A stretch of DNA of 32,000 bases from Candidatus Paracaedimonas acanthamoebae (GTDB taxonomy: Bacteria > Pseudomonadota > Alphaproteobacteria > Caedimonadales > Caedimonadaceae): assembly GCA_000743035.1 (NCBI GenBank), contig CP008936.1, positions 750,001-782,000 of the forward strand. Direction: 5' to 3'. Below, piece by piece: positions 6,267-27,012 of the stretch (the stretch's first letter is position 1; the number at the start of each line of letters is the position of its first letter). The position numbers were made by a program, and so were the translations under genes. The notes under the pieces were generated by a model. It worked only from the letters and a program-made list of their open reading frames with translations, had not been told where the DNA came from and did no database searches.

Positions 6267-6325
6267 GTCTTTGATTTATAATAAATAATTTTAGGTACAT
6301 TTTCGTTAAATGTAACAGAAATAGC

Positions 6326-7529: not shown

Positions 7530-7551
7530 AATTTGTACACACAGCCCGCAA

Positions 7552-8007: not shown

Positions 8008-8076
8008 ATTAATATTTATTGAAGATTCGTAACAAAATGGTTATTTTAAGAGTAACCGCAATATTAAGGAAACGTT

Positions 8077-8851: not shown

Positions 8852-9058
8852 GCGCACTATGTTCCTATAATAGGAGACTTCACATTCACCTCACATTCTT
8901 AGGATCTCCAACAAAATTTTCTTGAGAATATAAGCAGCCTTGAAAATAAAGGGCGTCTGCAGTTAATAATAGGTTCAAAGGATTCCTGTGCTCATTTTTC
9001 TATTTATTCTTTAATTAGAACACGTTACTCTTGCTTGTATGAATGGAGGAGCTAAGGG

Positions 9059-10303
9059 ATGCACAAAACTCAACGACATGTTTTTATTGATTATTTGAGA
9101 GGTTTTTTGGTTGCGCTTGTGGTTTTAGATCATGCGTGCCATGCCTATACAGAACACTATTCTAAGTTTTGGTTTTTCCCGGATTTTGAGCACAGTATTA
9201 TCTTTGATATTTTTCATCTACATAATGACAGCTTTATGATGCCGTCGCTTTTCTTTTTAGCCGGGCTTTTTATCCTTCCTTCTTTGAAACGAAGAGGTTA
9301 TTTAAGCTTTGCAAAAGAAAGATTTTTGCGCCTTGTAATTCCTTATATTGTAGGACTTCCGCTCATTAGTCCCCTTCTCTCTTATCCTCGTTATGTTCTG
9401 AATGAAAATCCCAGCATTGGCTATTGGCAGTATGTTACAGAAGTATGGGTTCATCGTTTACAAGCTGGGCCATTTTGGTTTTTATATTACTTAGTTCTCT
9501 TAAGTACGATTACGGTTGTTTTATATGCGGTAGTTCCTAAGATCTTTACTTTTCTTGGGAAATTTGCTGAATGGCTTATTGCAAAACCGCTGCGTGGCTT
9601 TGCTGTTTTTTGTTTTATTAGTTCTCTTATTTTAAGCATTAGTGACCTCATTTGGGGAGCTCCTTGGTGGATTGGTTGGTGGGCAGACTATAAATTTTTT
9701 TATGTTCGTGGTTCTCGTTTTATTCTTAAGGCTTTCTATTTCTTTCTTGGGGCTGGTTTTTCGCAAATTGTCATTCTTGACAATGAAGCTTTCTGGGAAC
9801 AACTTAGCAATAATTGGCAAAAGTGGGCTCTCTTTACACTTGGAGTTGCGGCTTGCTATATGGGCTATACGTTAGAGTTTTTTGATGAAGGCGTTTATAG
9901 TGATCATATTCGCTACTATATCGCAGAGCAAAGGGCCTATAATGCTGACTGGGCTGACGTGCTAGTCGGTTTTTGGCCGATTTTCTTTGAACATGCTCCT
10001 AAAGTTTTACTTCGAACAACGCTGCTGGGGATTTTTATTTGTTCTCAACTTGTTACCTATTCAGCCGTTTTTTATCGTTTTCTGAATAAAGGCAGTCTTC
10101 AATGGGCCTCATTGGCTGCTGCAGCTTATGGGATTTATATTATTCATGAACCCTTTGTCGTCTGGTCGCATTGGTTCTTTTATGGAGGGCAAGCTCCGCT
10201 TATTATCCGTTTTATTGTATCTGGATTCGGGGCACTTTTTATTTCATGGTTGATTGTAAACAAAGTTCTTCTGCGTCTTCCAGGTTTTAAACGTATTTTA
10301 TAG
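9059..10303 (+). CDS. Acyltransferase family 3-like integral membrane protein (paralog 1)
   Basis: 414 aa with about 10 hydrophobic segments. N-terminal FIDYLRGFLVALVVLDHACHAY resembles the acyltransferase_3 / OpgC-like signature. GGAGG SD precedes the ATG. Confidence 0.8.
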   Translation: MHKTQRHVFIDYLRGFLVALVVLDHACHAYTEHYSKFWFFPDFEHSIIFDIFHLHNDSFMMPSLFFLAGLFILPSLKRRGYLSFAKERFLRLVIPYIVGLPLISPLLSYPRYVLNENPSIGYWQYVTEVWVHRLQAGPFWFLYYLVLLSTITVVLYAVVPKIFTFLGKFAEWLIAKPLRGFAVFCFISSLILSISDLIWGAPWWIGWWADYKFFYVRGSRFILKAFYFFLGAGFSQIVILDNEAFWEQLSNNWQKWALFTLGVAACYMGYTLEFFDEGVYSDHIRYYIAEQRAYNADWADVLVGFWPIFFEHAPKVLLRTTLLGIFICSQLVTYSAVFYRFLNKGSLQWASLAAAAYGIYIIHEPFVVWSHWFFYGGQAPLIIRFIVSGFGALFISWLIVNKVLLRLPGFKRIL

Positions 10304-10321
10304 CAAGAAGGGAAAAGCTTG

Positions 10322-11569
10322 ATGCAAGGACAGCGCTATATATTTATTGATTACCTGAGAGGGTTTATTTTTGCACTTATGGCAATCGATCATTCTTTGC
10401 ATGCATATGCGCAGAATTGGGGACAATTTTGGTTTATTCAAGATCACGATCGTAGTCTAATTTGGGATGCTTTCTACCTTTTTGATCAAAGCATTATCAT
10501 GCCAATGCTTTTCTTTATTACAGGGCTTTGGGTATTACCTTCTCTAAAAAAATATGGATTTCAAGCATATCTTCGTCGGCGCTTTGTAAAGTTAGGCATC
10601 CCTTTTATTATTTGTATTCCTTTAATTGTACCTTTAATGACGTATCCTCGCTATACCCTTACTGTAGATTCCGATATTAGTTATCTTGATTACTGGTTTA
10701 ATGTTTTCTTGAGCGGAAAAAAGCTTCAAGCAGGCCCTTTATGGGTTATGTATGGCATGTTTTTATACAGCATGATTTTAGTTGGCCTCAGTGCGCTTCC
10801 AGGCATCATGAATAAATGGAGTAACTTCGTTCGCTTGCTCGTTAACCGACCTCAGTTTGGTTTTATTTTTCTTTTTCTGCTAAGTGCTCTTATTTTAGGT
10901 ATGAGTGATCTTACTTGGGGGGCTCCTTGGTGGATTGGTTGGGGAGTTTTCTATCTTCCAGGCGCACGATTTTTGCTATATTTCTTATACTTTATGCTCG
11001 GAGCAGGCTTTAGTCAGGCGGGACTCTTAGAGGACCGTTTTTTTTGGAAGCGACTCTCTGATCGACTGCCATGGTGGGCGGGTATTATGGGGCTGTCTGC
11101 TTTAGCATATGTGGGATATTCTCTTATTTTTATGCATGATGGAGCTTATAGCGATGTGATTCGACATGCTTTTCATGAATTCTTTGCTCTTGGTAGTTCT
11201 TGGAGTGAAATGCCTGAATTTGTAAATCAACAAGGTTGGCAATTAATTGAGAGTCATGCGCCTCGTGTTTTAATTCGAACAACTTTGCATGGAACTTTAT
11301 GCCTTTTCCAGGTTCTAACTTTGTTGGCTTTTTCTTATCGCTATTTTAATAAAGAACACCCCGTGTGGAGTTCGCTTGCTCGGAGCTGCTATGGCATCTT
11401 TTTAACTCATGAAGCCATGGTTATTTGGCTTCAGTATTTTCTGATTGGCATTGAGCTTCCTCAGATTTTAAAAATCATCATTATTGCTGGCCTTGGTTTT
11501 GGAGGCTCCTGGCTCTTAACTGAGAAATGGTTGCTTAAAATCCCCGTTTTAAAGAAGGTTATTGGCTAA
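10322..11569 (+). CDS. Acyltransferase family 3-like integral membrane protein (paralog 2, tandem duplicate)
   Basis: Colinear with the previous protein. Shared blocks: FIDYLRGF, MP.LFF..GL...PSLK, QAGP.W, WGAPWWIGW, LGAGFSQ, AP.VL.RTTL.G. I prefer ATG 10322 over TTG 10319. Its stop overlaps the convergent MBL gene stop by 3 nt. Confidence 0.8.
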   Translation: MQGQRYIFIDYLRGFIFALMAIDHSLHAYAQNWGQFWFIQDHDRSLIWDAFYLFDQSIIMPMLFFITGLWVLPSLKKYGFQAYLRRRFVKLGIPFIICIPLIVPLMTYPRYTLTVDSDISYLDYWFNVFLSGKKLQAGPLWVMYGMFLYSMILVGLSALPGIMNKWSNFVRLLVNRPQFGFIFLFLLSALILGMSDLTWGAPWWIGWGVFYLPGARFLLYFLYFMLGAGFSQAGLLEDRFFWKRLSDRLPWWAGIMGLSALAYVGYSLIFMHDGAYSDVIRHAFHEFFALGSSWSEMPEFVNQQGWQLIESHAPRVLIRTTLHGTLCLFQVLTLLAFSYRYFNKEHPVWSSLARSCYGIFLTHEAMVIWLQYFLIGIELPQILKIIIIAGLGFGGSWLLTEKWLLKIPVLKKVIG

Positions 11570-12909: not shown

Positions 12910-12985
<76 letters not shown>

Positions 12986-13099
12986 TATTTAACTTTGTTT
13001 TTATGAGATTTTTCCTCCATAATATTTATCTTCTGCAAAAATAAAAAAAATGGTTTGTATATGGTTTTATGTGAAGAAGACTTTCCTCTTCTTACAGAA

Positions 13100-13579
13100 T
13101 TATGTTTTTGACGTTCCTATAAATAGGATCACAGAACAAAAGAAAACAAGTAGAGCGGCTACAATAACCAAAGCTGTCTTACTCGTACCACTCTTTTCAA
13201 CCCCTTTAGAGATTTTTCTAGAAGCATGTTTTAAGTAAAGATAATCAGCATACCTCATTACAAAAACTATAAACAAAAGAGGAATACCTATTTCTAACAT
13301 ATTCTCCCAAACACCTAAAGAAAAGTGCCTAACTACCCAATTTGTCAGTTTTCCAGAATAAAGCGAAAACATTCCTACCCCAAGTCCATCCCAATACATA
13401 CGCCGATAAAAGAACCAAATAGGCCAAAATGTTGCCCAATTCCAGTTCCCCTTTTTGCCCGTTTGCTGATATTGATCAAAATAGTCTAAATAATGTTGAG
13501 TTGAAGACGATAATTTATCATCGGTGTCTTTATTTGTTTTAATAAAGTTTAAAAATTGCTCTCTGGTAATATTGATCAT
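13100..13579 (-). CDS. DUF2628-like small membrane protein
   Basis: 159 aa. NWNWATFWPIWFFYRRMYWDG followed by hydrophobic helices matches my memory of the DUF2628 pattern. Confidence 0.65.
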   Translation of the reverse strand: MINITREQFLNFIKTNKDTDDKLSSSTQHYLDYFDQYQQTGKKGNWNWATFWPIWFFYRRMYWDGLGVGMFSLYSGKLTNWVVRHFSLGVWENMLEIGIPLLFIVFVMRYADYLYLKHASRKISKGVEKSGTSKTALVIVAALLVFFCSVILFIGTSKT

Positions 13580-13748: not shown

Positions 13749-14043
13749 TCACTTAAGTACTGTATCAGGGGTTTCTTTGCATTTCTTGGCTAATCGGGTA
13801 ACCTCATCAATATGTGCTGGATCTTCAGGATCTGTTACTTCCTTACGCACCTGCAACAATTCTTCAATGATTGCATCCATATCACTGGTATCAAATACTG
13901 AATAATCATGAAGTTCCACTTCTCCTAAATAAGGAAACTCTGGGTTCTTATATCCTTTCACAAGGTAAGATCCATTGTTCTCTCGTGTGGTTCTTTCAAT
14001 CAACTTATCATCCTTAGACTCTAAAATTAATATGGATATTCAT
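13749..14043 (-). pseudogene. Orphan immunity-gene copy (paralog of 14153-14458) with a 1-nt frameshift near its 5' end
   Basis: Its protein aligns with the functional copy: NNGSYLVKGYKNPEFPYLGEVELHDYSVF...MDAIIEELLQVRKEVTDPEDPAHIDEV.RLAKKCKE. The ATG at 14043-14041 corresponds to the paralog's start but is out of frame. The orphan has an A4 run at 14023-14026 where the functional copy has A3. Confidence 0.6.
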
Positions 14044-14459: not shown

Positions 14460-17400
14460 TCATTTCACCATATATTTTAATGGGCCTGGAAAAACATTAA
14501 CTAAGTTTCCTTCTGCATCTGTTAATATTGTAATAATAGAAGTTGTATTGCTTCCATGTTGTGATGGTAATTTACCAATAATTGTACCAACGTCTACTTC
14601 TCGAACATACCTTCCACTTTCAACTATTTTAGTAATAGGCGTTTCAATAGTTTTTTTATCACTTAAAATAGATCTTACTTCTTCTTTAGGAATTGTAAAC
14701 TGAGACTTATTTGTTTTATCGAGGTTCATATGTTTACGCCATACTTTATCAATACCAGGCTTAGTCTCTCCTTCTACGCGCTTATTGGGTTTACCTGTTC
14801 CCTCTATAATATTAATTCTTGATTGAGCGCGAGGGGGCGCATAAATATCTAAATCATTCCCAGGAACGCTAGCTTTAGTAATGCCAGGAGCCTCTCTTCT
14901 TGTCAGCTTCTGCATCCCTTTTGACCAAGTTTCTGAGAGGAGCCCATCAGCGGTGAGGTAAAGTTCTTTGGCTTTTGTAAATCCTTTGCTTAAGGGGGCA
15001 AACACCTTAGCTATCACTTGTGCAAAGGCAGGGTTTTGGGCAATATAAGCTTGCCATACCATCTCAGCCATAGGACCAGAAAGCTTTGCAACTTTATAGA
15101 CAACTTTACCAGCCCCAAGGGTTACTATCGTTATAGCCCCATCAACAGCTACTTTCTGAAGTGCTGCTGCAGGGCCTTCTCTCTGCGCAGTTTTAATCAC
15201 ATCATAAACTTCATAGGCGGCAAGCCCTATCCCAACCGCCAGCATGATAGCATTATTTTCAACTGCATTTGTACTTGTATGTGCCCCAATACTTGGATCT
15301 TGCCCCAAAAGCGCTGCGACGGTGGCACCACTGAGCTTCGCGAAGGCAAGTTCCTTGGAAAGAGCATCATAAAGCTCAAGCTGGAACTTCCCATCCTTTA
15401 AAGACTGTCCTTCTTTTTCCGCCTTGGCCAGAATATCGAGCGCTTTATTTTTTGCTATACCTCGGCATTCCTCCATCACCACTTCAGAGACAATGCTTCC
15501 AATTGCTCCAGACATAAGGCCTCTTGCGGATGAGTCTAAAAACCATCCTGAAAGAGCGCCAACACTTCCATGTAAGGCTTTATGTTCAAAGTAACCCATT
15601 GGTTTGCTTGGATCGGCATATATGCGGCCTATATGATAGGATGCATACGATGCAAGCGTATCAACCCCTAAGTTCTTAACTCCATTCTTAACAGCTTCTT
15701 CCACAGAGATACGCCCTATCAGGCATTGAAGCGGCGTCTCAACAACTGTTTTTAAAGCATTCGCTTGTAAGAAATCCATAAACTTGACTTGCTTTTGCGG
15801 ATCTGTAAGCGCTGTTAAACCTGGGTGCAGATCAATCTTCAAAGCCTCGCTTATATTTTGACAAAGACCTGCACTGGTCATGGTAACAGCGAGAGAGCGC
15901 ATGCTTGCAGGAGAGATAAGCTCTTTACCTGCTTGAATGGGATTTCCTGTTCTTAAGACAGAACAAGTAAGTTGACTACAAATGGTCGAGAATCCCGCAT
16001 TGGCCACAGCCATCCCGGTAGATGAAAGTGTCACAGCAGGCACCATCACTGCTGCGCCTGCCGCTGTTGCAGCTGGCACTACGCCACAGAGAGATTCACC
16101 TAGAGAATTAATTAAAGAAGCCCCCCACCCTTGCGTTGCCAGGGTTACGCCTAATGCGACAACGACAAGGGCTTCATTTGGAATCAGCTGTTTATGATGC
16201 GCCCAACTTTTTTGCCAACTCTTCAGGTGATAGGTTGTCTCAGCAAACTTCCCAATGATTTGCGTGCGATCTTTATTCCAATCAACGGATTGAAGCTTGA
16301 TTTCTCCTTCATCAACTTGACGAATGATCTGATTAACAAGCAATCGACAAGGTTGCATGACTTCATAGCCGCCTTTACATCCCACATCACTTTTTAAAAA
16401 GGGACTCTTGGTGATGATTTGATGGAAATACTCAAGCCAACTTATCGAAGGCGCAAATGTGGCTCCTTCTTTCGTGTTGTCATAAATAATATCCGCAATA
16501 AAGTCGGTACCTCTGTAAATGGCGCTTTCTGTGTTCGTATGAATGGCCGGGGCACTGAGAGTAGTGGGAGCAAAATTTGCGCTTTGTCTAACACTGTGGC
16601 TATGCGAAGAAGAAAATAGACCATCCGTTTCGCTCTCTGTTTTGGTTGTGTTAATACCAACTGCTGCATGGGTTTCAAGGTCTTTTCCTTGGAAGATGAT
16701 TGCCACAATAGACTTGAGGAGAGAACCGGTAATGGTTGTCTTGGCTGTGTCGCCAGATAAGATCGTGACCTCTTCTTTCTCTGAGACAAGTTCAGAAGGA
16801 TGCGAAATTGTGGTTTCTTGGATGGTATGCGTCGTCGTATCCCCTTTGAAGAACCCGCCCTTTTTTGTATGGTAAGAGTGCTCAGTCCGCTTTAGCTGAG
16901 CTGCTTCAATATCTGAATTTCCCTCAAGTGAGCCCGCAATAAGCCGCAGTAAAGAACGCAGCTTTGTAGCTGTCATTTGGAAGCCTTTCTTGCCAAGAGC
17001 GATAACCTCCCCTTCTTCGCTCTCTAAACTTGTAGGAGAATCGAGAGATTCTTGTGTCCCTTTGCCATGAAAATGCGTACTGATGGTCGAAAGGAATGAA
17101 AGATGATCTTCAGAGAAAAAGTGCATCCATTTCTTTATCTTAATGGTCGTATCTTTAACAGTAAGAGGACCTTGGTTGTAAACATCCATTGTGTCGGCAC
17201 TCATTCCTTGAACGGAGTTCATGTCTTCTTGAGCAACAAATAAACTTAAAATCTGATGGATCTTATCACCTACCTGGCTTAAGCCAGGGAGAATCATTGA
17301 ATGCCTTGCCTTCTGGACGTCTTCGAGCGTTACAATCGCTTTTTTCTCATCCTGGCCAAAGCTGATTCCGTTTTGGATGAGACTTTGAAAGAGGGTGTCT

Positions 17401-20400
17401 TTATTTGAGTGATTAATGCTCACTCTGCCCGCCACCTGAGAAAGGGTTGCTTGTGTAAATAAGTTATACAATCCCAAAGATAACGTTTGTAAGGGGCTTA
17501 AAAGACGACTTGGATCTAAGGGGATCTGATAAAGATGGTGATTTTCTCGGGTACTCAACATGATCATTTGATCCCCTACTAAAGGAACATAAGGACTTCC
17601 AAGAGGAACTGTTGTAAGGACTTCGCCTATCGGTGTCAGACGCAGGAGACTGTTTCCTTTAGCTTGTGCTTGAATAGCACTTGTTAAATTCACTAACGCT
17701 GGCCCTGAGAGTGTTATTTGGGAACGCATTTGTTTGGAGTTATCAAAGAGGCCTGATCCAGAAGCTTGGATGGTAATCGTGCCTGAATGCTTGTTTCCAG
17801 ATAAAACGTAATTCCCGGTATTAATGTGGATGGCGATAGCAGATTGAACAATACAAGGATAGCTAAAAATTATCCGTGTGAACCATTGTGTCCCATTAGT
17901 CCACTTATGAATACAATTGGCAGGCTCTTCAATATAATTCGAGAGGCTTATTTTATCGTTTATAGCTATGCCGTTCACATAAATTTTTCCTTGTGTACGA
18001 ACAGTACTCCCACAATTAGTGACTTTATGCGTATTAATATGAATATCACCAAGGGAATCCAAGGTTGCTGGACCTGAAGTAGGCCTTTCCCATCCTTCAC
18101 CATCAAAAGAGCTTGAATCAGGTATAAATTTAGGGGGCTTTCCTGTATGTTTGTATTCATAACCTTGTATGAGGGTAGTTCCTAAAGAAAATATCTTTCC
18201 GGCTGTATTTTGAATATTTTTTGTAGCTTTAAAAGTGCTTCCTTTACCACTGAAGACGGTTCCACAGTCCACAATAACATTGCTTGCAGAGTCTATGATA
18301 ATATTATCTTCTGAAGCGAGATAAGCTTCGTTGCATTTAGAGGCATCGTCAAATAGGTGCTCTCTAGTATGCGTTGCTCTCCTTGCAGTCGTAGGACTAA
18401 GATCTGCAGTCGAAAAACTTGTATTTGCATAATAATATTTTTTAAAATCCTCATCTATTCCTTTCTGGGGAGCCCCGACGAGAGCATTTCCTTTTGTTGC
18501 TTTTATAAGTGTGGGCCCTTTGCCATACATTTTCCCAAAGCGATTATCGATACTATGAGCTGTGACAGTAAGGGATCCTTCGGTGGAAGCAATTTCGCCC
18601 ATAACTGTATTACTACTTCCGCATGTCAGCGGACCGTTGACATCGAATGTTAGAGTGGGGGCTGTAAACTTATGCGTAGTTGTAAAGAGACCACCCACAT
18701 ATAAAATGAGATGACCAATATTGGCAAAGTCATAGTTTTTGGTTGTGGTTATGGCAGGGGTATAAAAAACAACTTTTCCTTGTTTATTCGTACTTACTCT
18801 AGAAAGATCTGCAAGCGTTCGGCTGCTGCGATAGCGGGATGTGAAAAGTATTCCTTCTTGTGAACGGATGGCTTTGGGTAAAGTTTGAACATCATACGTT
18901 AAATCTTTTTGACTTTCGATCTCTCCTTGTGAGCTATAATTCTTACGTGCATCACCTTTTAGAACAAGGCGGTTTGCTGTAGTTGAAGTGTCATCCTCTG
19001 TGAAATGCCATTCGTTGTCTTGGAAGCTGATTAAACTATTATTCTTTAAAGTACCTATGATCGTATACTGGCCACTCCTCAGAATAAGACTTTTATTATT
19101 GATTAGATTAGTAAAAAATAGAGAACTATTTTGAAGTTCAAGGGTTTGATCATTTTGAATGTCAAGAGGAGAAGTACAACTTATATGCTCAAAGAGCCAC
19201 TGCCCATAATTATGAAATTTCGTTGGCTTGAATTCTAAAGTCCCATTCCGCCAGACAATGGTGCCCTGGTTAGAAATGGGGCCTGAATCTAACTTTAAAT
19301 GACCTTCATGAAACCATTTTCCTTCATTGTTAAATTCTCCAGCTTCTTGAAGCAATGAAAACTTTTGTTGTCCATTAGTTTCCCCTGTGAGTAATGATCC
19401 CTTATTCAGGATATGGCTCTTGGTCACTTTAATCGCTTCTAAAGCTTCAATAACTCCTTCCGTAAGGTTGTGGAGTTTTCCCCCTACAATTGCCAAAGTG
19501 GTGAACATCATTTTACCTGCATTTTCTATGAGGCGCTGACTCACATCTATGGAACTTGATTTTAAGGTTCCCAAATTATGAAGCGTATACGAAAGAGCAT
19601 CCTCCGGCCTTCCTTGAAAAGATAAGTGATCGACGAAAATATCCGCATCCCGATCGTTAACAAATGACTTATTCTGTCCTCCTAAACTAACTCGTTTCCC
19701 TCTGACCAAAGCTCGAGGGCCTTTGCTTTGGGTTTTATTTATAAATTGCAGGATTGAAAGTGTTGCTGGCTCCTTTAGATCTAATAGATCCAAAGTATGG
19801 TAATTCTTGAATAGGCCATTGCCGATTAATTGTTGGAGTGAAATTTCTCCTTCATTGGTCATCTCTCCTTGTACATTCAGGATTAAGCCTTCTCCCTTAA
19901 TTGTTCCTGTATTATGTCCCTTGGCTAGACTTAAGTGTTTAGTCTCAATGTCTCCTTGATTCATAAGCTCGGAGTTGACAGCGAGCTGATCAAGGATTCG
20001 GAGTGAACTTAAAGATGAATTGATAAAAGGTTTCCCCTTAACCACCATTTTATGAGCTTGCCAAAATCCATTATTTGAAGCCTGGCGCTTAAGCGTTGCT
20101 TCTTTAACGTAGAAAGCGCCTTCATTTACCATAGAAGCCCCCGAGGGAGATGAACTTAGATCAGCAGATAACTCTTCTGACACTCTGACTTCAGCTTCTT
20201 CACTATTTTTAAAGAGTTGGTTAGTGGATGCGATATGAAGGTAGGTACTCTCTATTTTTGCGCCTTCAGCTGTAGGCATTCTTTTTTCATTGGTGATTTG
20301 ACTCAAACCCAGCACCGCGCGTTCAGCTTGAGTTCCTTGAAACTGACAATAGGCATGGTTAGTAAGCTGCCCCTCACCGGTTAATCGTTTAACGCGTAAC

Positions 20401-21161
20401 CCTCCCTCATTAATGGCTTCATGAAAGATATGGAGGTGATCTGCAACAACGGCATGGGAAAAATGTGTTTTTTGAGATTTTAAGGTTAAGGATTTGGCAT
20501 TGAGTGTTTGGATGAAAAGTTCTTGTGATGTTTTAAGAACGAGATCATAAGCTGACTGAAATGGAGATGTAGCTAATTGATCAAAAAATATTGCACCATC
20601 TTTTAAGATATTAACGGTGGCAAAGCCTGGAATATACCACACCATGCTATCATTTTTATAGTTAACTAAGGAAGCTCCCTTGCATAAAGACAAGAAGGTA
20701 TCGGCTTGGGCCTCAGCTACTGGTGTAAAAAATGGCGTGATCCGGTCTTGTTCAACACTTGCGGTATAAAGGGTCTCAAAAGATTTTTGGGATGTTTTTG
20801 ATTTTCGTGAGACTTTAAACTGAATCGCTTTATTTTCTGGATTAAGCGTTTTAATTGAAATTTTATATTGGTAGCTCCCTAACGTTGTGGGTTGGGATTT
20901 CTCTAAAATTCGTTGTGCTTTTACCATCTCATCAACTGATGGGATGTAGGATGCTTTTATAGCTGACACGTCCTCTATAGGAAGAGGTCCTTGAATGATG
21001 TCCTTAGACGATAGAGTTGAATCTTTGAACCTAGGAAAATGTTTATTGTATGTGCTTGAAGAATGATCAACATCACAAGCAAGTGCAAATGGAGTCAGTG
21101 ATTGTATTGAGTAAGAGACCAAAACTAAGCGCGCAATCACTTTGAAAAACTTATTTTGCAA
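14460..21161 (-). CDS. CdiA/FhaB-like polymorphic toxin (beta-helical repeats, pretoxin region, VENN motif, variable C-terminal toxin)
   Basis: 2233-aa ORF. TTG start at 21161 with GGGAGG 8 nt upstream and a signal-like N-terminus (VIARLVLVSYSIQSLTPFALA). Long Asn/Gly/Thr-rich repetitive region. FHA-2-like segments (YHTKKGGFFKGDTTTH, TDGLFSSSHSHS). Gly/Ala/Ser-rich pretoxin (DUF637-like) region. VENN at 15252-15263 (GTTGAAAATAAT on the minus strand), followed by a 263-aa tail. Confidence 0.8.
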   Translation of the reverse strand: MQNKFFKVIARLVLVSYSIQSLTPFALACDVDHSSSTYNKHFPRFKDSTLSSKDIIQGPLPIEDVSAIKASYIPSVDEMVKAQRILEKSQPTTLGSYQYKISIKTLNPENKAIQFKVSRKSKTSQKSFETLYTASVEQDRITPFFTPVAEAQADTFLSLCKGASLVNYKNDSMVWYIPGFATVNILKDGAIFFDQLATSPFQSAYDLVLKTSQELFIQTLNAKSLTLKSQKTHFSHAVVADHLHIFHEAINEGGLRVKRLTGEGQLTNHAYCQFQGTQAERAVLGLSQITNEKRMPTAEGAKIESTYLHIASTNQLFKNSEEAEVRVSEELSADLSSSPSGASMVNEGAFYVKEATLKRQASNNGFWQAHKMVVKGKPFINSSLSSLRILDQLAVNSELMNQGDIETKHLSLAKGHNTGTIKGEGLILNVQGEMTNEGEISLQQLIGNGLFKNYHTLDLLDLKEPATLSILQFINKTQSKGPRALVRGKRVSLGGQNKSFVNDRDADIFVDHLSFQGRPEDALSYTLHNLGTLKSSSIDVSQRLIENAGKMMFTTLAIVGGKLHNLTEGVIEALEAIKVTKSHILNKGSLLTGETNGQQKFSLLQEAGEFNNEGKWFHEGHLKLDSGPISNQGTIVWRNGTLEFKPTKFHNYGQWLFEHISCTSPLDIQNDQTLELQNSSLFFTNLINNKSLILRSGQYTIIGTLKNNSLISFQDNEWHFTEDDTSTTANRLVLKGDARKNYSSQGEIESQKDLTYDVQTLPKAIRSQEGILFTSRYRSSRTLADLSRVSTNKQGKVVFYTPAITTTKNYDFANIGHLILYVGGLFTTTHKFTAPTLTFDVNGPLTCGSSNTVMGEIASTEGSLTVTAHSIDNRFGKMYGKGPTLIKATKGNALVGAPQKGIDEDFKKYYYANTSFSTADLSPTTARRATHTREHLFDDASKCNEAYLASEDNIIIDSASNVIVDCGTVFSGKGSTFKATKNIQNTAGKIFSLGTTLIQGYEYKHTGKPPKFIPDSSSFDGEGWERPTSGPATLDSLGDIHINTHKVTNCGSTVRTQGKIYVNGIAINDKISLSNYIEEPANCIHKWTNGTQWFTRIIFSYPCIVQSAIAIHINTGNYVLSGNKHSGTITIQASGSGLFDNSKQMRSQITLSGPALVNLTSAIQAQAKGNSLLRLTPIGEVLTTVPLGSPYVPLVGDQMIMLSTRENHHLYQIPLDPSRLLSPLQTLSLGLYNLFTQATLSQVAGRVSINHSNKDTLFQSLIQNGISFGQDEKKAIVTLEDVQKARHSMILPGLSQVGDKIHQILSLFVAQEDMNSVQGMSADTMDVYNQGPLTVKDTTIKIKKWMHFFSEDHLSFLSTISTHFHGKGTQESLDSPTSLESEEGEVIALGKKGFQMTATKLRSLLRLIAGSLEGNSDIEAAQLKRTEHSYHTKKGGFFKGDTTTHTIQETTISHPSELVSEKEEVTILSGDTAKTTITGSLLKSIVAIIFQGKDLETHAAVGINTTKTESETDGLFSSSHSHSVRQSANFAPTTLSAPAIHTNTESAIYRGTDFIADIIYDNTKEGATFAPSISWLEYFHQIITKSPFLKSDVGCKGGYEVMQPCRLLVNQIIRQVDEGEIKLQSVDWNKDRTQIIGKFAETTYHLKSWQKSWAHHKQLIPNEALVVVALGVTLATQGWGASLINSLGESLCGVVPAATAAGAAVMVPAVTLSSTGMAVANAGFSTICSQLTCSVLRTGNPIQAGKELISPASMRSLAVTMTSAGLCQNISEALKIDLHPGLTALTDPQKQVKFMDFLQANALKTVVETPLQCLIGRISVEEAVKNGVKNLGVDTLASYASYHIGRIYADPSKPMGYFEHKALHGSVGALSGWFLDSSARGLMSGAIGSIVSEVVMEECRGIAKNKALDILAKAEKEGQSLKDGKFQLELYDALSKELAFAKLSGATVAALLGQDPSIGAHTSTNAVENNAIMLAVGIGLAAYEVYDVIKTAQREGPAAALQKVAVDGAITIVTLGAGKVVYKVAKLSGPMAEMVWQAYIAQNPAFAQVIAKVFAPLSKGFTKAKELYLTADGLLSETWSKGMQKLTRREAPGITKASVPGNDLDIYAPPRAQSRINIIEGTGKPNKRVEGETKPGIDKVWRKHMNLDKTNKSQFTIPKEEVRSILSDKKTIETPITKIVESGRYVREVDVGTIIGKLPSQHGSNTTSIITILTDAEGNLVNVFPGPLKYMVK

Positions 21162-21234
21162 CTTTAATGCCTCCCTTTATGCTTATCCCTAAAGCAAATT
21201 GACAAGAATGTCTTAACCTAAGCTTCTATGATCA

Positions 21235-21263
21235 AATATAGGAAATAGCTAAATGTTGGTCAA
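21235..21263 (-). promoter_or_regulatory. Candidate promoter of the toxin operon
   Basis: On the minus strand: TTGACC (21263-21258), 17-nt spacer, TATATT (21240-21235). About 70 nt upstream of the TTG start. Pattern match only. Confidence 0.35.
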
Positions 21264-21381
21264 TTTTTTAGAATGCCCGAATAATTTTAATTAAATTTTA
21301 TAATAAGATTGGTGATCTTTTATTTTCCCTAGATAATTTATTTTTTCTATTTTTATAAGAAAAAAAGAGATCAATTAATGA

Positions 21382-21759
21382 CTAATTGACCTTTATGGCC
21401 ATGCAAGTTCTCAAGCTATTCTTAATCTCTTTAATACGTTTATCTTCTTCAGAAGCACAGATCCACAGACAGCCAGCTGGATTTCTAAAGTATTAGGGGA
21501 GAAGGATGAAACAGAAATTGTTGAAAATCTCTCCTATGGCGCAAACACCATTCAAGGTGGCGTATCCTTAAATCAGCAAACGCATACTAAGCCCATTATC
21601 ATTCCCACAGAAATCCAAAATTTAAGAGACCTTGAGGCCTATATCAAACTCACAGGCAATTATCCTATTACTAAGCTCAAGATGCCCTACCAGCCTGAAC
21701 CACAAAGTAAGATCGAAGCGTTTGATTTCTCCCTAATCACAGGAGCTGACCATGCCTGA
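21382..21759 (+). pseudogene. 3' fragment of a type IV coupling protein gene (TraD/TraG/VirD4 family)
   Basis: Open frame with no start codon: ...YGHASSQAILNLFNTFIFFRSTDPQTASWISKVLGEKDETEIVENLSYGANTIQGGVSLNQQTHTKPIIIPTEIQNLRDLEAYIKLTGNYPITK... This matches my recollection of the C-terminal region of T4CPs. Only ~125 codons remain of an expected several hundred. Confidence 0.6.
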
Positions 21760-22336
21760 AATGCAAGATCCCTTTGAGATGAACTACTATAAGCTCTCAC
21801 TTCTTAAAGAAGAGATGGCCTCTCAAATTAAAGACTTACAAAAGACGATAGACGAGGTTAAAGCAGGAGCCCGCATGTTCATGGTGCAACACGAAGAGTT
21901 TAAAACTATTGCCTCTCATGTTCAAAAGAGCCTGAAGGCTAGTATCCTAGATGCTTCTCAGCAAATGGGGCAAGAGGTAACCGATAAGATTGAAGAGCAA
22001 ATAAAGGAAACATTCGAGGAAGCTGCCCAAAATTTACTGACCACCTCTCAAAGTACTGAAGGGACACTCCTTAAAGCACAAAAGGCTCTATCTTTGAGAA
22101 ATTGGCTTATAGGCGCAACAACGCTTGTAGCCTCCCTTCTAACAGCGCTTTCTCTTAGTTATTTTTACCTCGCCAAAATAGAATCTATAGCCACACGGCA
22201 GCTTGTAAAGACTTATAAATATGGCCTTTTGCTTAAAGACATTTGGCCTAAGCTCAGTGCTAAAGATCAAAAGAAATTCAGCCAGTTCTTGGAAGACAAA
22301 GAGCATAAATTTAAAAACCGTAAAATACGTTACTAA
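21752..22336 (+). CDS. Coiled-coil protein with one TM helix, hypothetical (likely a former tra-operon gene)
   Basis: 194 aa with a heptad-like charged N-terminal half and a TM segment LIGATTLVASLLTALSLSYFYL. Its ATG overlaps the coupling-protein remnant stop (ATGCCTGA). Confidence 0.55.
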   Translation: MPEMQDPFEMNYYKLSLLKEEMASQIKDLQKTIDEVKAGARMFMVQHEEFKTIASHVQKSLKASILDASQQMGQEVTDKIEEQIKETFEEAAQNLLTTSQSTEGTLLKAQKALSLRNWLIGATTLVASLLTALSLSYFYLAKIESIATRQLVKTYKYGLLLKDIWPKLSAKDQKKFSQFLEDKEHKFKNRKIRY

Positions 22337-22477
22337 AGGAAAGCCATATACGCAAGGTCGTTCTCTAAGTATCTTTCATATCTTTCCAATGTGTGCCAAT
22401 ATGGGATAAATAAATGCTTGTATAATAGTACCCTTCCCGATATGTTCATATAATCTTTTAAAAATGCGGAAGAAACA

Positions 22478-24031
22478 ATGTTGGGTTCATTAAAAACTAG
22501 AGCTTGGATTATATGGTTATCATTAAGCATCATCAGCTTAATTAATTATCCCACATGCGCGAGTAATTCATTTGAAACAATTAGAATCTCAGAATTTGAT
22601 AGTAACAAATTAAAGAGGCAAAATGTAAAGGATTGTACTATTTCAGACCCAACATCTGGCTATAATTCATGCTATGGAAATGGAATGATTTTCACGGTTT
22701 TTCCTCCGCCAAAAGAAGACGATGGCAGATATAAAGATGCAACCATGGTACAAGAATTTTACAAAAAATTAACTGATTCAGGTGTAAAGCAAAATGTCGT
22801 TGTCGCTCGAGCAGTATTTAAGTTCAACCACTTAGAAAATCTGGGTTCTTTCACTCTTCCTTACATATTTTTTAGTGGGAGCCCAGATGAAGTAAAGTCA
22901 ACAATTCCATTAAATAAAAAGGAAGTTGAGACAACTATAATAGCACTCCCTACTTGTTTAAAAACTAAGCTCAAAGAACAAATTGAAGGAAGTTCTCTAG
23001 AATCTATTGCCAGAGAGTGTTTGAAAGATTTCTTCCTACCTGCTTATAAAAACCCAATATTCATTTTTGATAGTAATGCTAGTTCTATTGATCAATTAAA
23101 GGACAGCATCCTAAATTTCAGAGGCTTTATTTATAGTCATTTTATTGATGAAGAATCTGAAGGCTATAAACTTTTTATGCAAAACAATCCCCATACAACC
23201 TTCATAAGTATACTTAGAGGTATTGCTTCTTATTCCAAAGGATGCTCTGGGGATAAAATGCAAAAGCAAAGTGAGCCAGCTTTAAATCTTGCTTTGCAGG
23301 AAATCTATTTAAGGCAACCTGCTACAGAAAAATTGCTTAAAGAAATATTTGATGAAGATAGTCTGGATGAATTATTTGGACAAGGCTCCCATGGAGAAGG
23401 TAATAAAAAGAAAGGGATGAGTTTTTGCTTTCATCAATCTGAGCAAGCATTATTAGGCTACTTGCTAAAAAAGGATGGCAATAAAAAACATCATAATGAA
23501 TTTATTTCAATATTAATTGAATTCTTGAAATATAATCTTAATTCTCATTTTGACCAATATAAGGAAGTGTTAAGTGTAACATCCTCTTCCGCTCAATCTG
23601 GAGCACCCACGATTGCAGATGATCTTCCTTCCTTAAGCGAGATAGTACAGAGTCCCGTTGAACAACAAGGATCTAACGTGATATTAGTTGCAAAGTGTGA
23701 CATTGATACAAATCTTGAGCTTTTTTCACCAAGACATATTTGTAAATATTGCAGAGGTACATTTTATATATGCCAACAAAAAATCCTTAATCTCATAAAG
23801 GATGTTTTGCAAAATAACGGGCTTAATATACTTGAAGCTGAACAAAAAAATAAAAAAGTCTCCCAAGAAGATAATTTATATGATAAGGTAGTTACACACT
23901 TTAAGCTACCAATCAAACCTAAATCAATAATAGTCAAATATATGGGAAGGATAAACTTAAGCATATTTGCTACTTCTCATCAACCAGCCGAACCTGCTTT
24001 AATGGGAAAAATGGAGACAATACATGAATAG
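22478..24031 (+). CDS. Secreted orphan protein with a deaminase-like motif arrangement (speculative)
   Basis: 517 aa. Signal-like N-terminus AWIIWLSLSIISLINYPTCASNS and GGAAG SD. C-terminal third contains MSFCFHQSEQALLGYLL and, about 105 aa later, SPRHICKYCRGTFYICQQ. Confidence 0.65.
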   Translation: MLGSLKTRAWIIWLSLSIISLINYPTCASNSFETIRISEFDSNKLKRQNVKDCTISDPTSGYNSCYGNGMIFTVFPPPKEDDGRYKDATMVQEFYKKLTDSGVKQNVVVARAVFKFNHLENLGSFTLPYIFFSGSPDEVKSTIPLNKKEVETTIIALPTCLKTKLKEQIEGSSLESIARECLKDFFLPAYKNPIFIFDSNASSIDQLKDSILNFRGFIYSHFIDEESEGYKLFMQNNPHTTFISILRGIASYSKGCSGDKMQKQSEPALNLALQEIYLRQPATEKLLKEIFDEDSLDELFGQGSHGEGNKKKGMSFCFHQSEQALLGYLLKKDGNKKHHNEFISILIEFLKYNLNSHFDQYKEVLSVTSSSAQSGAPTIADDLPSLSEIVQSPVEQQGSNVILVAKCDIDTNLELFSPRHICKYCRGTFYICQQKILNLIKDVLQNNGLNILEAEQKNKKVSQEDNLYDKVVTHFKLPIKPKSIIVKYMGRINLSIFATSHQPAEPALMGKMETIHE

Positions 24032-24641
24032 AAAAGTTAAACGGTATTTTAGAATATTTTTATTTACATTTCTTGCTGTGCCTCAAAACCACTCTTTTGC
24101 AAGTAAGCATTGTGATCTAGGAGACATCTATCATCATGGCCCTAAAGTAATTTGTTTAGGGGAGCGGCCTAATTTAAGCTCAGATCAGTTAGACCACTTC
24201 TTTGAAAAACATTTCGATAAGAATGCAAAAATATTAAGTTTAAGGTGCCAAGAAGAATTAACAGATGCTCACTTAAAGTGGTTATCAAAACTACCACAGA
24301 CAGCCACAATTATAGAACTGAACCTTAGCAGGACTAGTATTTCTTATGATGGAATAGTGCACTTATGGAAATCAGAATTTTTGGGTTCCGTTAGAGATGA
24401 GCAACCAATATATGAAAGCTATTATAATACGCCTATATCCGTAGTAAAAGTTGAAATAGGCCACACAAAAGCTCTAAAACAGTATAAAAAGCATTTGAAA
24501 AATGGGAAAAAAATATTTCCCTTACCTTTGCGTAATAAGTTTGAAATCCGCTATGTACACCCAGCAATTGATGTTGAATATAAAGAGATTGGCCTTAAAC
24601 AAATTCTCCTCACTGACCATGGTGAGCCTATTGGAAATTAA
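24024..24641 (+). CDS. Secreted orphan protein with 1-2 LRR-like units
   Basis: 205 aa. Its ATG overlaps the upstream stop by 8 nt (ATGAATAG). Signal-like FRIFLFTFLAVPQNHSFAS. LRR-like ILSLRCQEELTDAHLKWLSKL...IIELNLSRTSISYDGIVHL. Confidence 0.6.
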   Translation: MNRKVKRYFRIFLFTFLAVPQNHSFASKHCDLGDIYHHGPKVICLGERPNLSSDQLDHFFEKHFDKNAKILSLRCQEELTDAHLKWLSKLPQTATIIELNLSRTSISYDGIVHLWKSEFLGSVRDEQPIYESYYNTPISVVKVEIGHTKALKQYKKHLKNGKKIFPLPLRNKFEIRYVHPAIDVEYKEIGLKQILLTDHGEPIGN

Positions 24642-24722
24642 TTGTATTTAAGTTAAAGTAGGAGAAAATAATAAGTGGTACATATTCATAATACACATAG
24701 ATTTCTCTTAACAATTTCATAC

Positions 24723-25852
24723 TTAACGAAATAGCCTCACTTTTAATAAATTGATTTTATCTACTGAATCCCTTATCAATAGTCTTATTTTCTTTTTTAA
24801 GAAGTATTTTAGTACCTCTGCTGCTTCTTTATCCTTTAACTCAAGGCTTATAAAGTTAGGATCTTGCTTATAAAGCTCTTGCGCGTATCTTCTTAAATCA
24901 GCTTCAGTTTAAGTTTTATCGTAAGCATTGCAAGCAAACTTATGGTCTCTTAAGAGAGAGTTGAGCTTTTCTGAAGGTGTGGGTTCTACTCTTACTTGCT
25001 TATCGCTTAAGATCTTTAAACGATGGGCCTTAGCTTCAGCGTGCATTTCACCCCCTAACTGTGCTGCAAGTTCGGGATTTCTGGCTTCAAACTGTCGCCG
25101 CCATTCAAGCTTTGGATCATATTTTACACCTTGATTTTGCTGAGGAACCTCATAAGAAGAGAGTGGTTTCTTAAACTCTTCTCTCTCTGTTGATAGGCGA
25201 ATCCCAATGCTATCAGCTTCATTTTTAGATATTCTTGTGGTGGTTGGGTTGGAAGCATTTTTGATTGAGTACTCTTGTTCAATATACTTTTTTATAAAGC
25301 TTATTATTTTCGGTATCATGTCCTTTCAATAACTCTTTCGTCCTGATATGCTCACTGATACTTCCTTGAGAGATACAGATCTCTTGTTGCTCAGGAACTT
25401 TACCTAAAAAACGCTCTGTAATACTCTGCCACGCTTATTTAGACACAAAGCGGATCGCCTGAAGTTCGTTACTAAGACGACTCAAGGTCTCTTGAAGTTG
25501 AGACTGTCTCCTCTGTTTGATCAAGCTTGGCTTTGATCTTATGCCGATCAATTTCTAAGATGGTTCCTAATATTCCCTTTTTAACTTTGAGACCATTATC
25601 ATTCCTCATGAAGAGGATCCGATCTCTTTATGCAAAGTGCTTCTCTTCTTTTGTAATAATCTTGTCGCCAAAATCATCTTCGTCTTCTTTATGGATGGTA
25701 TAAAGATATTCCTCTTTCGATATCATGTTGCCTTGCTTTAAAAGGTGGCGCGCTTCTTCATTAAGCTTAGCAGTCTCTAGAAGTTTTTTGTAAGTTTTGA
25801 AGGCATGGTACCTAACAATCAAAAAATGGGTTGTATATGGTTTAATAGACAC
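24723..25852 (-). pseudogene. Decayed relaxase/RecD-like helicase (TraA/TraI-type) C-terminal remnant
   Basis: One minus-strand reading frame is broken by in-frame stops at 25628-25630 and 24909-24911 and a frameshift near 25460. The segment ...EEKHFA*RDRILFMRNDNGLKVKKGILGTILEIDRHKIKAKLD resembles the GDRI.F..N...LGV.NG..G.V block of conjugative relaxase-helicases. The catalytic N-terminal part is missing. Confidence 0.45.
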
Positions 25853-25970
25853 AGATTCAGAATGACAATTAAAAACTTTTCGAGAACTAGATATTGATAT
25901 AAGTTATTGATAAATAATTATTTATATAATTTAATAAGTTTTAAGAGAATTATAAATATATGACTTACTT

Positions 25971-26019
25971 TACAATGGCATTGTAGAGGTCAGGGGTTCA
26001 ATCCCCCTTGGTTCCACCA
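25971..26019 (+). repeat. Right copy of 49-nt direct repeat: tRNA-Ala 3' fragment (att-like island boundary)
   Basis: TACAATGGCATTGTAGAGGTCAGGGGTTCAATCCCCCTTGGTTCCACCA equals tRNA positions 28-76 with 2 mismatches. The 5' half of a tRNA is absent. Confidence 0.9.
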
Positions 26020-26132
26020 AATATATCATTTGTTTAATTCTATTAATAAAATCTCTCATCATACAATAAGTGACATTTTCATAAAGTTTAACTAAGAAAG
26101 GTTAGTTAACGCCTTTTCATTGATTCAAGCAT

Positions 26133-26163
26133 AAAAAAACCGCGCCAAAAAGGCGCGGTTTTT
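26133..26163 (-). terminator. Rho-independent (bidirectional-looking) terminator downstream of the porin gene
   Basis: A7, then CCGCGCC, AAAAA loop, GGCGCGG, then T5. On the minus strand the hairpin is followed by U7. It lies 23 nt after the stop of the 26186-26791 gene. Confidence 0.75.
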
Positions 26164-26185
26164 CTTGACGTTGAGGTCGTTTAGA

Positions 26186-26791
26186 CTACCACTTGTAGCT
26201 AACGCGGCCTGTAACGTCTGTGACTCTTGCTGTAGCCTTAACATTAGTACCTTTTTCATGGTGCTTCTTGTACATTGTGTGAGTTGCTTCAACACCAACT
26301 ACAACATGTTCAGATGCCATGAAGGAAGCTCCAAGACCTGGTACAAATGCAATTTTACGCTTTTTATGATTTTCCAATTTCCAAGAAGCTGAAGAAACAC
26401 CAGCCTTTACGTAAAGAAGAGCATTTCCACACACGAAACCTGGACGAAATGCAGCGCCAAATTCATTTTCTCTTTTAAATTTCAGATTAGAAGTACCAGC
26501 GTTAATCTTGCCTTCGTGCTTACCGATGTTACCAAATGCTTCAAGTCCGAGATAAAGCTTATTGTTGAATTCTTTACCAAAACCAACATGAAGACCACCA
26601 ACAACACCATTGCTTCCCAAATCAATATTTGTTTGAGCGCCTACTGTAGAGTCTTTAATTTTTGTTTTACCGGAACCGTAACCAAGGTGACCACCAACGT
26701 AGAAACCGGAGAAGTTCTTACCTTCCATCGCAGCATTCGCAGCAGATGCGAGAACTGCAGCGCTTGCAACTGTAAGTGCTAATTTTTTCAT
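26186..26791 (-). CDS. Small outer-membrane beta-barrel protein (Omp25/Omp31/OmpA-beta-barrel-like)
   Basis: Signal peptide MKKLALTVASAAVLASAANA, alternating beta-strand pattern (FYVGGHLGYG, LYLGLEAFG, YVKAGV) and C-terminal aromatic ...RVSYKW. I prefer ATG 26791, which has AGGA 6 nt upstream, over ATG 26803. Confidence 0.85.
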   Translation of the reverse strand: MKKLALTVASAAVLASAANAAMEGKNFSGFYVGGHLGYGSGKTKIKDSTVGAQTNIDLGSNGVVGGLHVGFGKEFNNKLYLGLEAFGNIGKHEGKINAGTSNLKFKRENEFGAAFRPGFVCGNALLYVKAGVSSASWKLENHKKRKIAFVPGLGASFMASEHVVVGVEATHTMYKKHHEKGTNVKATARVTDVTGRVSYKW

Positions 26792-26857
26792 ATTTATCCT
26801 CATATAAGGTTGTTTTAAACTAAATCCAAAAAGACTTATTTCTTTTCGAATGCCATC

Positions 26858-26886
26858 ATATTGTTATGTCTGACTAATCAGGTCAA
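26858..26886 (-). promoter_or_regulatory. Candidate promoter of the porin gene
   Basis: On the minus strand: TTGACC (26886-26881), 17-nt spacer, CAATAT (26863-26858). Pattern match only. Confidence 0.3.
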
Positions 26887-27012
26887 CTACGTAGAAGGAT
26901 TTTTCTGTGTGAAACTTTTCCCTGTGTCTTTTGTGCAACATATTACAATACTAGGCAGAAAGGCGAATATCTGATAAAATTATTTGAATATATAAAAGGA
27001 AAGAATTTTCTA

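Follow-up and report, generated by a model that had tools for sequence, protein, structure and literature searches.

Export by the pairing of a two-partner secretion (TPS) domain with a TpsB pore is taken to define the route of filamentous proteins of the FHA and CdiA type, and the pre-toxin domains DUF637 and PT-VENN are seen as its hallmarks. Polymorphic toxins that carry a signal peptide as their only trafficking element have also been described, among them toxins of the amoeba symbiont Odyssella thessalonicensis, some of which bear OTU domains (Zhang et al., 2012; PMC3482391). Novel polymorphic toxins whose N-terminal parts lack known homology were reported from Candidatus Bodocaedibacter vickermanii, a Holosporales symbiont (Midha et al., 2021; PMC8163844), while work on Rickettsiales described CRCT-domain toxins and a scarcity or absence of cdiB in genomes that carry CdiA/Rhs-like toxins (Verhoeve et al., 2022; PMC9111745). 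The present analysis concerns a gene for a 2233-residue toxin protein of Candidatus Paracaedimonas acanthamoebae, which lies in a 32,000-nucleotide stretch of contig CP008936.1 (assembly GCA_000743035.1, positions 750,001 to 782,000 of the forward strand), hereafter the window.

The product of this gene is identical to the hypothetical protein IM40_03990, encoded on a contig of 1.72 Mb. Ca. Paracaedimonas acanthamoebae belongs to the Holosporales, lives in the cytoplasm of Acanthamoeba and has a G+C content of ~38% (PMC11909080). The protein is probably a functional polymorphic toxin of the contact-dependent inhibition (CDI) type and a member of a distinct, hitherto unnamed family whose filament proteins would derive from TpsA but have another module in place of the TPS secretion domain. 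Its architecture consists of a Sec signal, a linker, a module of ~105 amino acids (aa), a TpsA-type β-helix, a variable segment, a family-specific region, DUF637, PT-VENN, a hydrophobic domain and a swappable toxin, with an immunity gene following (Table 1). No description of the N-terminal module or of the family was found in the literature, and neither has a Pfam model.

An N-Terminus Without a TPS Domain

The initial annotation of the locus had reported that the protein lacks a recognisable TPS domain and its NPNL/NPNG motifs, and profile, motif and structural searches concur. Neither Pfam TPS (PF05860) nor ESPR matches the toxin protein at E ≤ 1, and neither matches any of 20 relatives (23-42% identity) at E ≤ 1e-3. 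All 12 canonical TpsA N-termini used as positive controls, which were taken from the distant matches of the family's own profile search, match TPS at ~1e-49 to 1e-54. The motif NPN[LGIV] is absent from the first 450 residues of every family member examined. When family N-termini were compared with the TPS alignment by hhalign, the probability was 43.6%, and only family columns 193-417 were aligned, namely with the last part of the TPS alignment and the generic β-helix that follows; the isolated module (aa 60-215 or 60-420) reached a probability of 0.4% against the TPS core.

Structure prediction with AlphaFold2 (AF2) of aa 1-720 gave a predicted local distance difference test score (pLDDT) of 81.8 and a predicted TM-score (pTM) of 0.75. 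In this model a small α/β module (aa ~76-200, pLDDT 55-80) caps the β-helix. A Foldseek search of the model against the PDB returned nothing at E ≤ 0.001; the top match is full-length HxuA, itself a TpsA protein (E 0.027, TM 0.30), and the isolated HxuA secretion domain ranks 40th (E 1.3). A hidden TPS domain was thus considered and set aside, the Pfam search at E ≤ 1, the PDB sequence profile, hhalign, the motif search and Foldseek all being negative or generic. To judge from these comparisons, the front end of the toxin protein is not a TPS domain.

What occupies its place is a module found only in this family in the profile search, for which neither Pfam nor PDB gives a sequence match. In canonical TpsA proteins the TPS domain sits directly after the signal peptide, and in one subfamily, which lacks the linker, the module does so as well. 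The N-terminal signal reads MQNKFFKVIARLVLVSYSIQSLTPFALA, followed by C, and a signal-like N-terminus is kept across the family. A lipoprotein was also considered: the Cys after the signal is kept in the six closest proteins and gives a lipobox-like context with Asp at +2. This candidate was ruled out and signal peptidase I is favoured, because the Cys becomes Ser or Ala in wider relatives (YAS, HAS, YAA).

A Full-Length Family in Several Hosts

At a threshold of E ≤ 1e-3, an exhaustive profile search with aa 1-720 retrieved 193 cluster representatives; 51 of these remain at E ≤ 1e-30, of which ~35 match from the extreme N-terminus. The proteins form a coherent full-length family of about 35-50 clusters. 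Contigs scanned for the conserved mid-region (IPNEALVVVAL...) yielded loci in a Candidatus Dependentiae metagenome-assembled genome (MAG) and in several further MAGs. Wherever the 5' end of the gene is included in such a locus, the family N-terminus is present and a TPS domain is not. Family hosts include Paracaedimonas (Holosporales), a Dependentiae MAG, and MAGs with Ank, F-box or U-box genes in the flanks. One relative, P0006 (locus L007), has an insertion of ~340 aa before the conserved mid-region that contains OTU-like Cys/His motifs (NSCGFYALL ... YNNHFDRL); Pfam gives no OTU domain match in this insertion at E ≤ 0.01.

Loci Without a Partner Gene

Partner genes were sought in the window and at about 20 related loci of Holosporales-like, Dependentiae and other MAGs, up to 10 kb on each side. 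Among the Pfam-annotated called genes of the related loci there is no ShlB, POTRA or Omp85 gene, the TPS hidden Markov model finds nothing in any of their open reading frames (ORFs), and Pfam finds nothing in the larger unannotated flank ORFs. In the window, no ORF of at least 400 aa matches ShlB, POTRA or Omp85. When the 257 ORFs flanking 21 loci were compared with one another by BLAST, neighbours proved to be shared only through synteny within one subclade. The earlier statement that the genomic island carrying the gene has no Omp85-type transporter and no adjoining cdiB therefore holds within the sequence covered, namely the window and the relatives' flanks, and the lack of an adjacent cdiB characterises the family throughout (~20 loci, at least two phyla).

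A canonical counterpart exists for comparison. The toxin domain also forms the C-terminus of a 3373-aa protein encoded on Rhizobium rhizogenes plasmid pC5.7b (L019; 35-38% identity, E ~1e-11). That protein has a TPS domain (2e-47) and FHA-2 (1.5e-58), a ShlB/FhaC gene lies directly upstream, and the locus shows the textbook order tpsB-tpsA-immunity; the gene downstream of the Rhizobium toxin is not homologous to the 101-aa immunity gene of the window.

One explanation of the missing partner is an ordinary split two-partner system, in which a TPS domain would have diverged so far as to become the N-terminal module, and export would rely on a classical TpsB/CdiB whose gene lies elsewhere in the genome. 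The β-helix repeats, being homologous to canonical TpsA repeats, would agree with this, as would the top, though weak, Foldseek matches to the TpsA protein HxuA and the existence of unlinked tpsA genes in other bacteria. Such a split is nevertheless unlikely, given that the TPS signal is nil at every sensitivity tried, with controls at ~1e-50, that the NPNL/NPNGI motif occurs in no member, and that TpsB is missing at ~20 loci in at least two phyla despite the mobility of the gene, which a dedicated partner should accompany, as is the case in Rhizobium.

The flanks also bear on export in one step through a type VI (T6SS), type I (T1SS) or type IV secretion system. One relative (L008) is preceded, at 2944-9491, by genes for a TolC-like OEP, an ABC transporter with a C39 peptidase and an HlyD-type adaptor, that is, a T1SS set, and by a gene for a Sel1-repeat protein, and in the window a coupling-protein remnant adjoins the toxin gene. 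The T6SS is moreover widespread in the Holosporales and conserved in the Holosporineae (PMC11909080), and Midha et al. (2021; PMC8163844) suggested it as the route for the new toxins of the related B. vickermanii. A cleavable Sec-type signal peptide is unexpected for T1SS or T6SS cargo, and because it is conserved here, one-step systems are very improbable. PAAR, VgrG, Rhs and RTX are absent by Pfam from the toxin protein and 20 relatives, what is left of the coupling protein is a defunct remnant encoded on the other strand, and the T1SS neighbourhood occurs at one of ~20 loci.

Sel1-like secreted proteins were considered as a partner and rejected; they lie upstream in two loci and are related to each other only via their repeats. 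Locus L008 holds, 3' of its toxin gene, a second DUF637 protein of 2888 aa that matches neither the family N-terminus nor the mid-region, followed by an Imm39 gene (18545-27211). At L004/L005, where the toxin is orthologous, a 1354-aa kinase-domain protein (1-3701, minus strand) stands beside a 1613-aa classical autotransporter (4029-8870, plus strand), whose gene indicates that type Va secretion exists in the L004 organism. The flanks of related loci are rich in integrases, transposases, toxin-antitoxin pairs, ParA and eukaryote-like Ank/F-box/U-box proteins, a content in keeping with mobile DNA in protist symbionts.

A TpsA-Type Shaft and a CDI-Type Delivery End

The family profile matches TPS-bearing TpsA proteins solely over positions ~350-720, in multiple repeats and with E down to 1e-35, and the repeats of the β-helix are homologous to those of canonical TpsA proteins. 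Pfam Fil_haemagg has no match on the toxin protein, and NCBIfam fil_hemag_20aa remains below its cut-off. In CdiA the receptor-binding region is central, and by analogy the most variable internal segment, aa 901-1100, is a candidate for this role. Segments of aa 1100-1975 are unmatched in the TPS-bearing proteins from the profile search, which need not be of the CdiA type. The simplest history is that the protein began as a filament of the TpsA type and had its TPS domain exchanged for another module.

The back half of the protein was originally described as CdiA-like on the basis of features that included a pretoxin region and an exact VENN motif, and DUF637 and PT-VENN now exceed their Pfam cut-offs. 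DUF637 is present in 9 of the 20 relatives. VENN itself (aa 1967-1970; 15252-15263) lies downstream of DUF637 and inside the PT-VENN match, and its column reads VENN, LENN or VDND in six homologues, which rules out a tetrapeptide that arose by chance. The FHA-2-like repeats also proposed at the outset were not recovered: PF13332 is silent on the toxin protein at E ≤ 1, with a canonical Rhizobium control at 1.5e-58, and one of the 20 relatives matches, at 1.3e-4.

The 263 residues after VENN had been taken together as a variable tail. Variability is borne out for the last ~125 aa, whereas the three closest relatives retain 64-82% identity over aa 1971-2100 and diverge only from about aa 2100 onwards. 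Because identity persists for ~130 residues past VENN, the tail is bipartite, with a shared hydrophobic domain followed by a toxin of ~125 aa. Enterobacterial CdiA-CT has two domains, and by analogy aa 1971-2100 may serve as the domain for entry into the cytoplasm. Homologues are 29-79% identical across most of their length but differ in their C-terminal toxins. The toxins found at the ends of relatives are CDI_toxin_EC869_like, with a CdiI gene after it, LHH, with a SUKH gene after it, Tox-REase-9 and Tox-HNH-HHH, and where the next gene is neither CdiI nor SUKH it is another small one; such varied ends on a shared body are the mark of a polymorphic toxin system.

The toxin tip of the window protein (last ~125 aa) has no Pfam or PDB sequence match, and an AF2 model built from 5 sequences was unusable (pLDDT 41). 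It is 44-50% identical to stand-alone 119-aa genes and, in addition to the Rhizobium protein, its domain occurs in an orphan DUF637 module of Paraburkholderia phymatum that adjoins a ShlB gene (35-38% identity, E ~1e-11). A 70%-identical toxin fragment (P0166) was found in a metagenome. Because the same domain ends a canonical TPS-bearing Rhizobium protein and sits in the Paraburkholderia orphan module, the tip is regarded, by homology, as a genuine toxin module of the CDI type. Its homologues share invariant Arg, His, Glu, Ser and Thr residues; the conserved Arg/His/Glu pattern, together with the general bias of such toxins, prompts the low-confidence guess that the toxin might be a nuclease.

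A coupled immunity gene had been noted when the locus was first annotated, and both its 1-nt spacing from the toxin gene and the conservation of the pair in an acidobacterial MAG agree with this. In that Pyrinomonadaceae MAG an immunity homologue (37% identity, E 2e-20) lies directly 3' of a toxin homologue; toxin and immunity gene form a mobile cassette, kept as a pair in another phylum. The order at the MAG locus (L016, 2621-4722) is a 452-aa DUF8575/metallopeptidase-like protein, a separate 119-aa toxin-homologue gene and the immunity homologue, an arrangement in which this toxin may be delivered by a scaffold that is split or of another kind. The window has a second immunity copy; the two are covered by a 271-nt direct repeat (76% identity), with no toxin fragment between the tandem genes, and the second copy, as an orphan, may confer immunity to some variant of the toxin. 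A gene for a small DUF2628 membrane protein lies 3' of the immunity gene(s) in the window (13100-13579, minus strand) and at the closest related locus (L001, 17297-17776); it is the only flank gene common to both.

Maintenance of the Toxin Gene

The gene had been described as an intact, maintained 6.7-kb frame. It is uninterrupted, and the ratio of nonsynonymous to synonymous substitution rates (dN/dS) over the gene is 0.18 and 0.21 against two orthologues (79% and 76% identity), from which its last 133 codons are essentially unrelated. With dN/dS at ~0.2, the whole gene, its unusual front end included, is under purifying selection and is maintained. The strong Shine-Dalgarno sequence first pointed out, GGGAGG, is present at 21175-21170. 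The candidate promoter fared less well, in that TTGACC-17-TATATT is indeed there but promoter-like sites in this region are no more frequent than in shuffled sequence. The TTG start (21159-21161) is kept in both orthologues whose DNA was inspected (L001 and L004, each at 10001-10003).

Selection on the front end bears on the possibility of a default toxin of the Sec/type II secretion system (T2SS) kind, whose folded filament would exit through a secretin, in vesicles or by lysis and would need no dedicated recognition domain. The module is conserved (dN/dS 0.13-0.21) and stands directly after the signal in one subfamily, which suggests a specific role for the mature N-terminus, and DUF637 and PT-VENN are listed as pre-toxin domains associated with type V secretion systems (T5SS) in PMC3482391. 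The same work classes polymorphic toxins that have only a signal peptide as T2SS/Sec (Zhang et al., 2012; PMC3482391), and no conserved partner gene accompanies the family; on the whole, default export is improbable.

Two further possibilities, an effector directed at the host or its organelles and a functionless, decaying relic, are taken to be exceedingly remote. The dN/dS of ~0.2 over 6.7 kb argues against decay, even though the surrounding island is degraded. The bacterium does live in the amoeba cytoplasm, and the flanks of relatives do hold Ank, F-box and U-box genes, but the tightly coupled immunity gene and its extra paralogue indicate self-protection from a toxin aimed at bacteria, and the same toxin domain ends the canonical CdiA-type protein of Rhizobium.

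The Island and Other Features of the Window

The initial annotation placed the locus on a tRNA island, and the 3' half of tRNA-Ala(GGC) is indeed repeated at 25971-26038, so that tRNA-Ala repeats bound an island of ~13 kb. A second repeat, of 26 nt (92%), occurs near both ends (13045-13070 and 25821-25846), and no integrase gene remains inside the island. Upstream of the toxin gene, where cdiB would be expected, the annotation had noted non-coding DNA and then a coupling-protein fragment, both of which were found: there is no ORF in 21162-21384, and the remnant beyond it comprises the C-terminal 100 residues of a type IV coupling protein (profile TrwB_AAD_bind). Because this fragment lies inside a tRNA-bounded island, the element at tRNA-Ala that carries the locus is an integrative conjugative element in decay.

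Two overlapping island genes on the plus strand (22478-24031, 517 aa, and 24024-24641, 205 aa) encode proteins with signal-peptide-like N-termini and no Pfam match; the 205-aa protein is leucine-rich-repeat-like by eye, neither product resembles an Omp85 transporter, and both may be host-directed effectors. Elsewhere in the window, the gene at 101-4096 (plus strand) encodes 1331 aa that include a protein kinase domain of the eukaryotic type. Close to the island but not within it, at 9059-11569 (plus strand), there is a tandem pair of genes for Acyl_transf_3 membrane acyltransferases (414 and 416 aa), in a region of strong negative AT skew (-0.29 to -0.30).

TABLE 1. Features of the toxin locus and its island, with positions in the window and in the toxin protein (aa).
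Feature	Position	Strand	Remarks
Toxin gene, 2233 aa	14460..21161	-	Single uninterrupted ORF, TTG start
Shine-Dalgarno GGGAGG	21170..21175	-	8 nt 5' of TTG; direct sequence reading
Promoter-like TTGACC-17-TATATT	21235..21263	-	10/12 matches; sigma-70-like consensus match only; best in region
Sec-type signal peptide, aa 1-28	21078..21161	-	Basic n-region, hydrophobic core, cleavage-like site between ALA and C; AF2 helix 4-26
Low-complexity linker, aa 29-95	20877..21077	-	Disordered in model, pLDDT <50 for aa 11-72; missing in one subfamily
Family-specific N-terminal module, aa ~96-200	20562..20876	-	YQYKL...KxSRK...W.IPGFG...DGSVFF; in the place of the TPS domain
Right-handed β-helix shaft, aa ~201-900	18462..20561	-	Modelled to aa 720; AF2 pLDDT mostly >90
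Most variable internal segment, aa 901-1100	17862..18461	-	Identity 60-65% in close relatives, 12-16% in distant ones
Conserved family-specific region, aa 1101-1660	16182..17861	-	No FHA-2 signal; dN/dS 0.09
DUF637 (PT637) pre-toxin domain, aa 1721-1886	15504..16001	-	Pfam 28.9 bits, cut-off 26.6
PT-VENN pre-toxin domain, aa 1939-1971	15249..15347	-	Pfam 22.1 bits, cut-off 20.3
Hydrophobic post-VENN domain, aa 1971-2100	14862..15251	-	64-82% identity to relatives P0002-P0004, 20-25% to P0005-P0007
Variable toxin domain, aa ~2109-2233	14463..14837	-	Homologues in stand-alone genes, Rhizobium TpsA end, Paraburkholderia orphan module
dN/dS of toxin aa 1-200			0.13-0.21
dN/dS of toxin aa 901-1100			0.27, highest internal
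dN/dS of toxin aa 1101-1660			0.09
Cognate immunity gene, 101 aa	14153..14458	-	Begins 1 nt past toxin stop codon
Second immunity paralogue, N-terminally shorter	13749..14003	-	71% aa identity to first copy
tRNA-Ala(GGC), integration site	12910..12985	+	Left island end
Repeat of tRNA-Ala 3' half	25971..26038	+	Right island end; 87% identity over 68 nt to 12937-13004
Type IV coupling protein remnant, C-terminal ~100 aa	21385..21751	+	TrwB_AAD_bind positions 288-387 of 387, E 4e-27

A Model for Export and Delivery

On the reading favoured here, that of a functional CDI-type toxin whose TPS domain has been replaced, Sec would carry the toxin protein into the periplasm, where the mature N-terminal module would take the role of the TPS domain and engage an outer-membrane exporter encoded away from the locus. 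The front end is most simply explained by a non-canonical route of export. The exporter could well be an unlinked or housekeeping protein of the Omp85 family, TpsB-like or TamA/BamA, although this assignment falls somewhat short of an even chance; a secretin, or the default Sec/T2SS route, is a rather doubtful alternative. Once outside, the β-helix would be displayed as a surface filament, and the variable middle segment would bind a receptor of a neighbouring bacterium sharing the amoeba. DUF637/PT-VENN and the hydrophobic domain after VENN would then bring the toxin tip through the target envelope, and the toxin, probably a nuclease (at low confidence), would arrest cells that lack the immunity protein. 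The immunity protein would shield sibling cells, and the extra paralogue would possibly cover a variant toxin. From the logic of toxin-immunity pairs, competitor exclusion inside the host cell is a plausible function.

Several points weigh against this model. No exporter was identified in a search that covered, for TpsB, the 32-kb window of the 1.7-Mb genome and the flanks of the related loci; L008, as a single case among ~20 loci, adjoins type I secretion genes; and the proposed steps of target entry rest on analogy, since the Pfam FHA-2 signal is absent.

A bolder version of the model is that the N-terminal module marks a new outer-membrane export pathway for TpsA-type filaments, working without a TPS domain or a dedicated TpsB (for example directly through BamA/TamA, or through an unrecognised transporter), which would have spread horizontally among unrelated intracellular bacteria of protists (Holosporales, Dependentiae) and would arm them against co-infecting bacteria. 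This version is tentative and, at present, the less probable side of the question.

Relation to Known Systems

The protein resembles the CdiA/CdiB/CdiI systems (type Vb), including the R. rhizogenes pC5.7b locus, in its Sec signal, long β-helical shaft and variable middle segment. DUF637 with PT-VENN, the VENN boundary, the bipartite C-terminus with its swappable tip and the small immunity gene that follows are likewise CdiA-like, and the same toxin domain family ends the Rhizobium CdiA-type protein (37% identity). Unlike CdiA, the toxin protein is without TPS, ESPR or detectable FHA-2 (PF13332), its N-terminal ~200 aa and aa 1101-1660 are family-specific, and cdiB/tpsB does not adjoin it at ~20 loci.

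With a trafficking element, a filament, a pre-toxin region, a recombining toxin, an immunity gene and an orphan immunity gene, the protein fits the polymorphic toxin systems sensu Zhang et al. (2012). It shares with the Sec-only toxins of that study, and with Neisseria MafB, a cleavable signal as the sole recognisable trafficking element, as well as polymorphic toxins with immunity genes. The Odyssella toxins (PMC3482391), likened here by description, also come from a Holosporales host that is an amoeba symbiont, and OTU-like motifs occur in relative P0006. MafB proteins differ in being short and non-filamentous, and MafB_N (DUF1020) has no Pfam match on the toxin protein at E ≤ 1. Unlike Sec-only toxins in general, this protein joins a Sec-only front end to pre-toxin domains of the T5SS type and a TpsA-type β-helix.

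The toxins of B. vickermanii (PMC8163844) and the CRCT toxins of Rickettsiales (PMC9111745) are similar in being large multidomain toxins with immunity genes in obligately intracellular Alphaproteobacteria of protists or arthropods, and in having N-terminal parts that resemble nothing known; the comparison with CPBP_00656 (Tox-HNH-HHH) and the 2192-aa NF27_IC00050 was made by description only. Those toxins are defined by their C-terminal domains, and the present N-terminal module is not described there. The novelty of the locus is reduced by earlier publications (PMC3482391, PMC9111745, PMC8163844), in which Sec-only polymorphic toxins of endosymbionts and the scarcity of cdiB in such lineages were put forward.

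Implications for Secretion and Symbiont Competition

The family separates the delivery end of CdiA and the shaft of TpsA from the TPS/TpsB export pair and, in this sense, is unusual without being categorically new. If export is confirmed, it would constitute a second way for a β-helical protein of ~240 kDa to cross the outer membrane, and a defined module of ~105 aa would be available as bait in the search for its transporter. The locus adds to the few cases of weapons directed by bacteria against bacteria in obligate intracellular symbionts, and it implies that real competition takes place inside amoebae.

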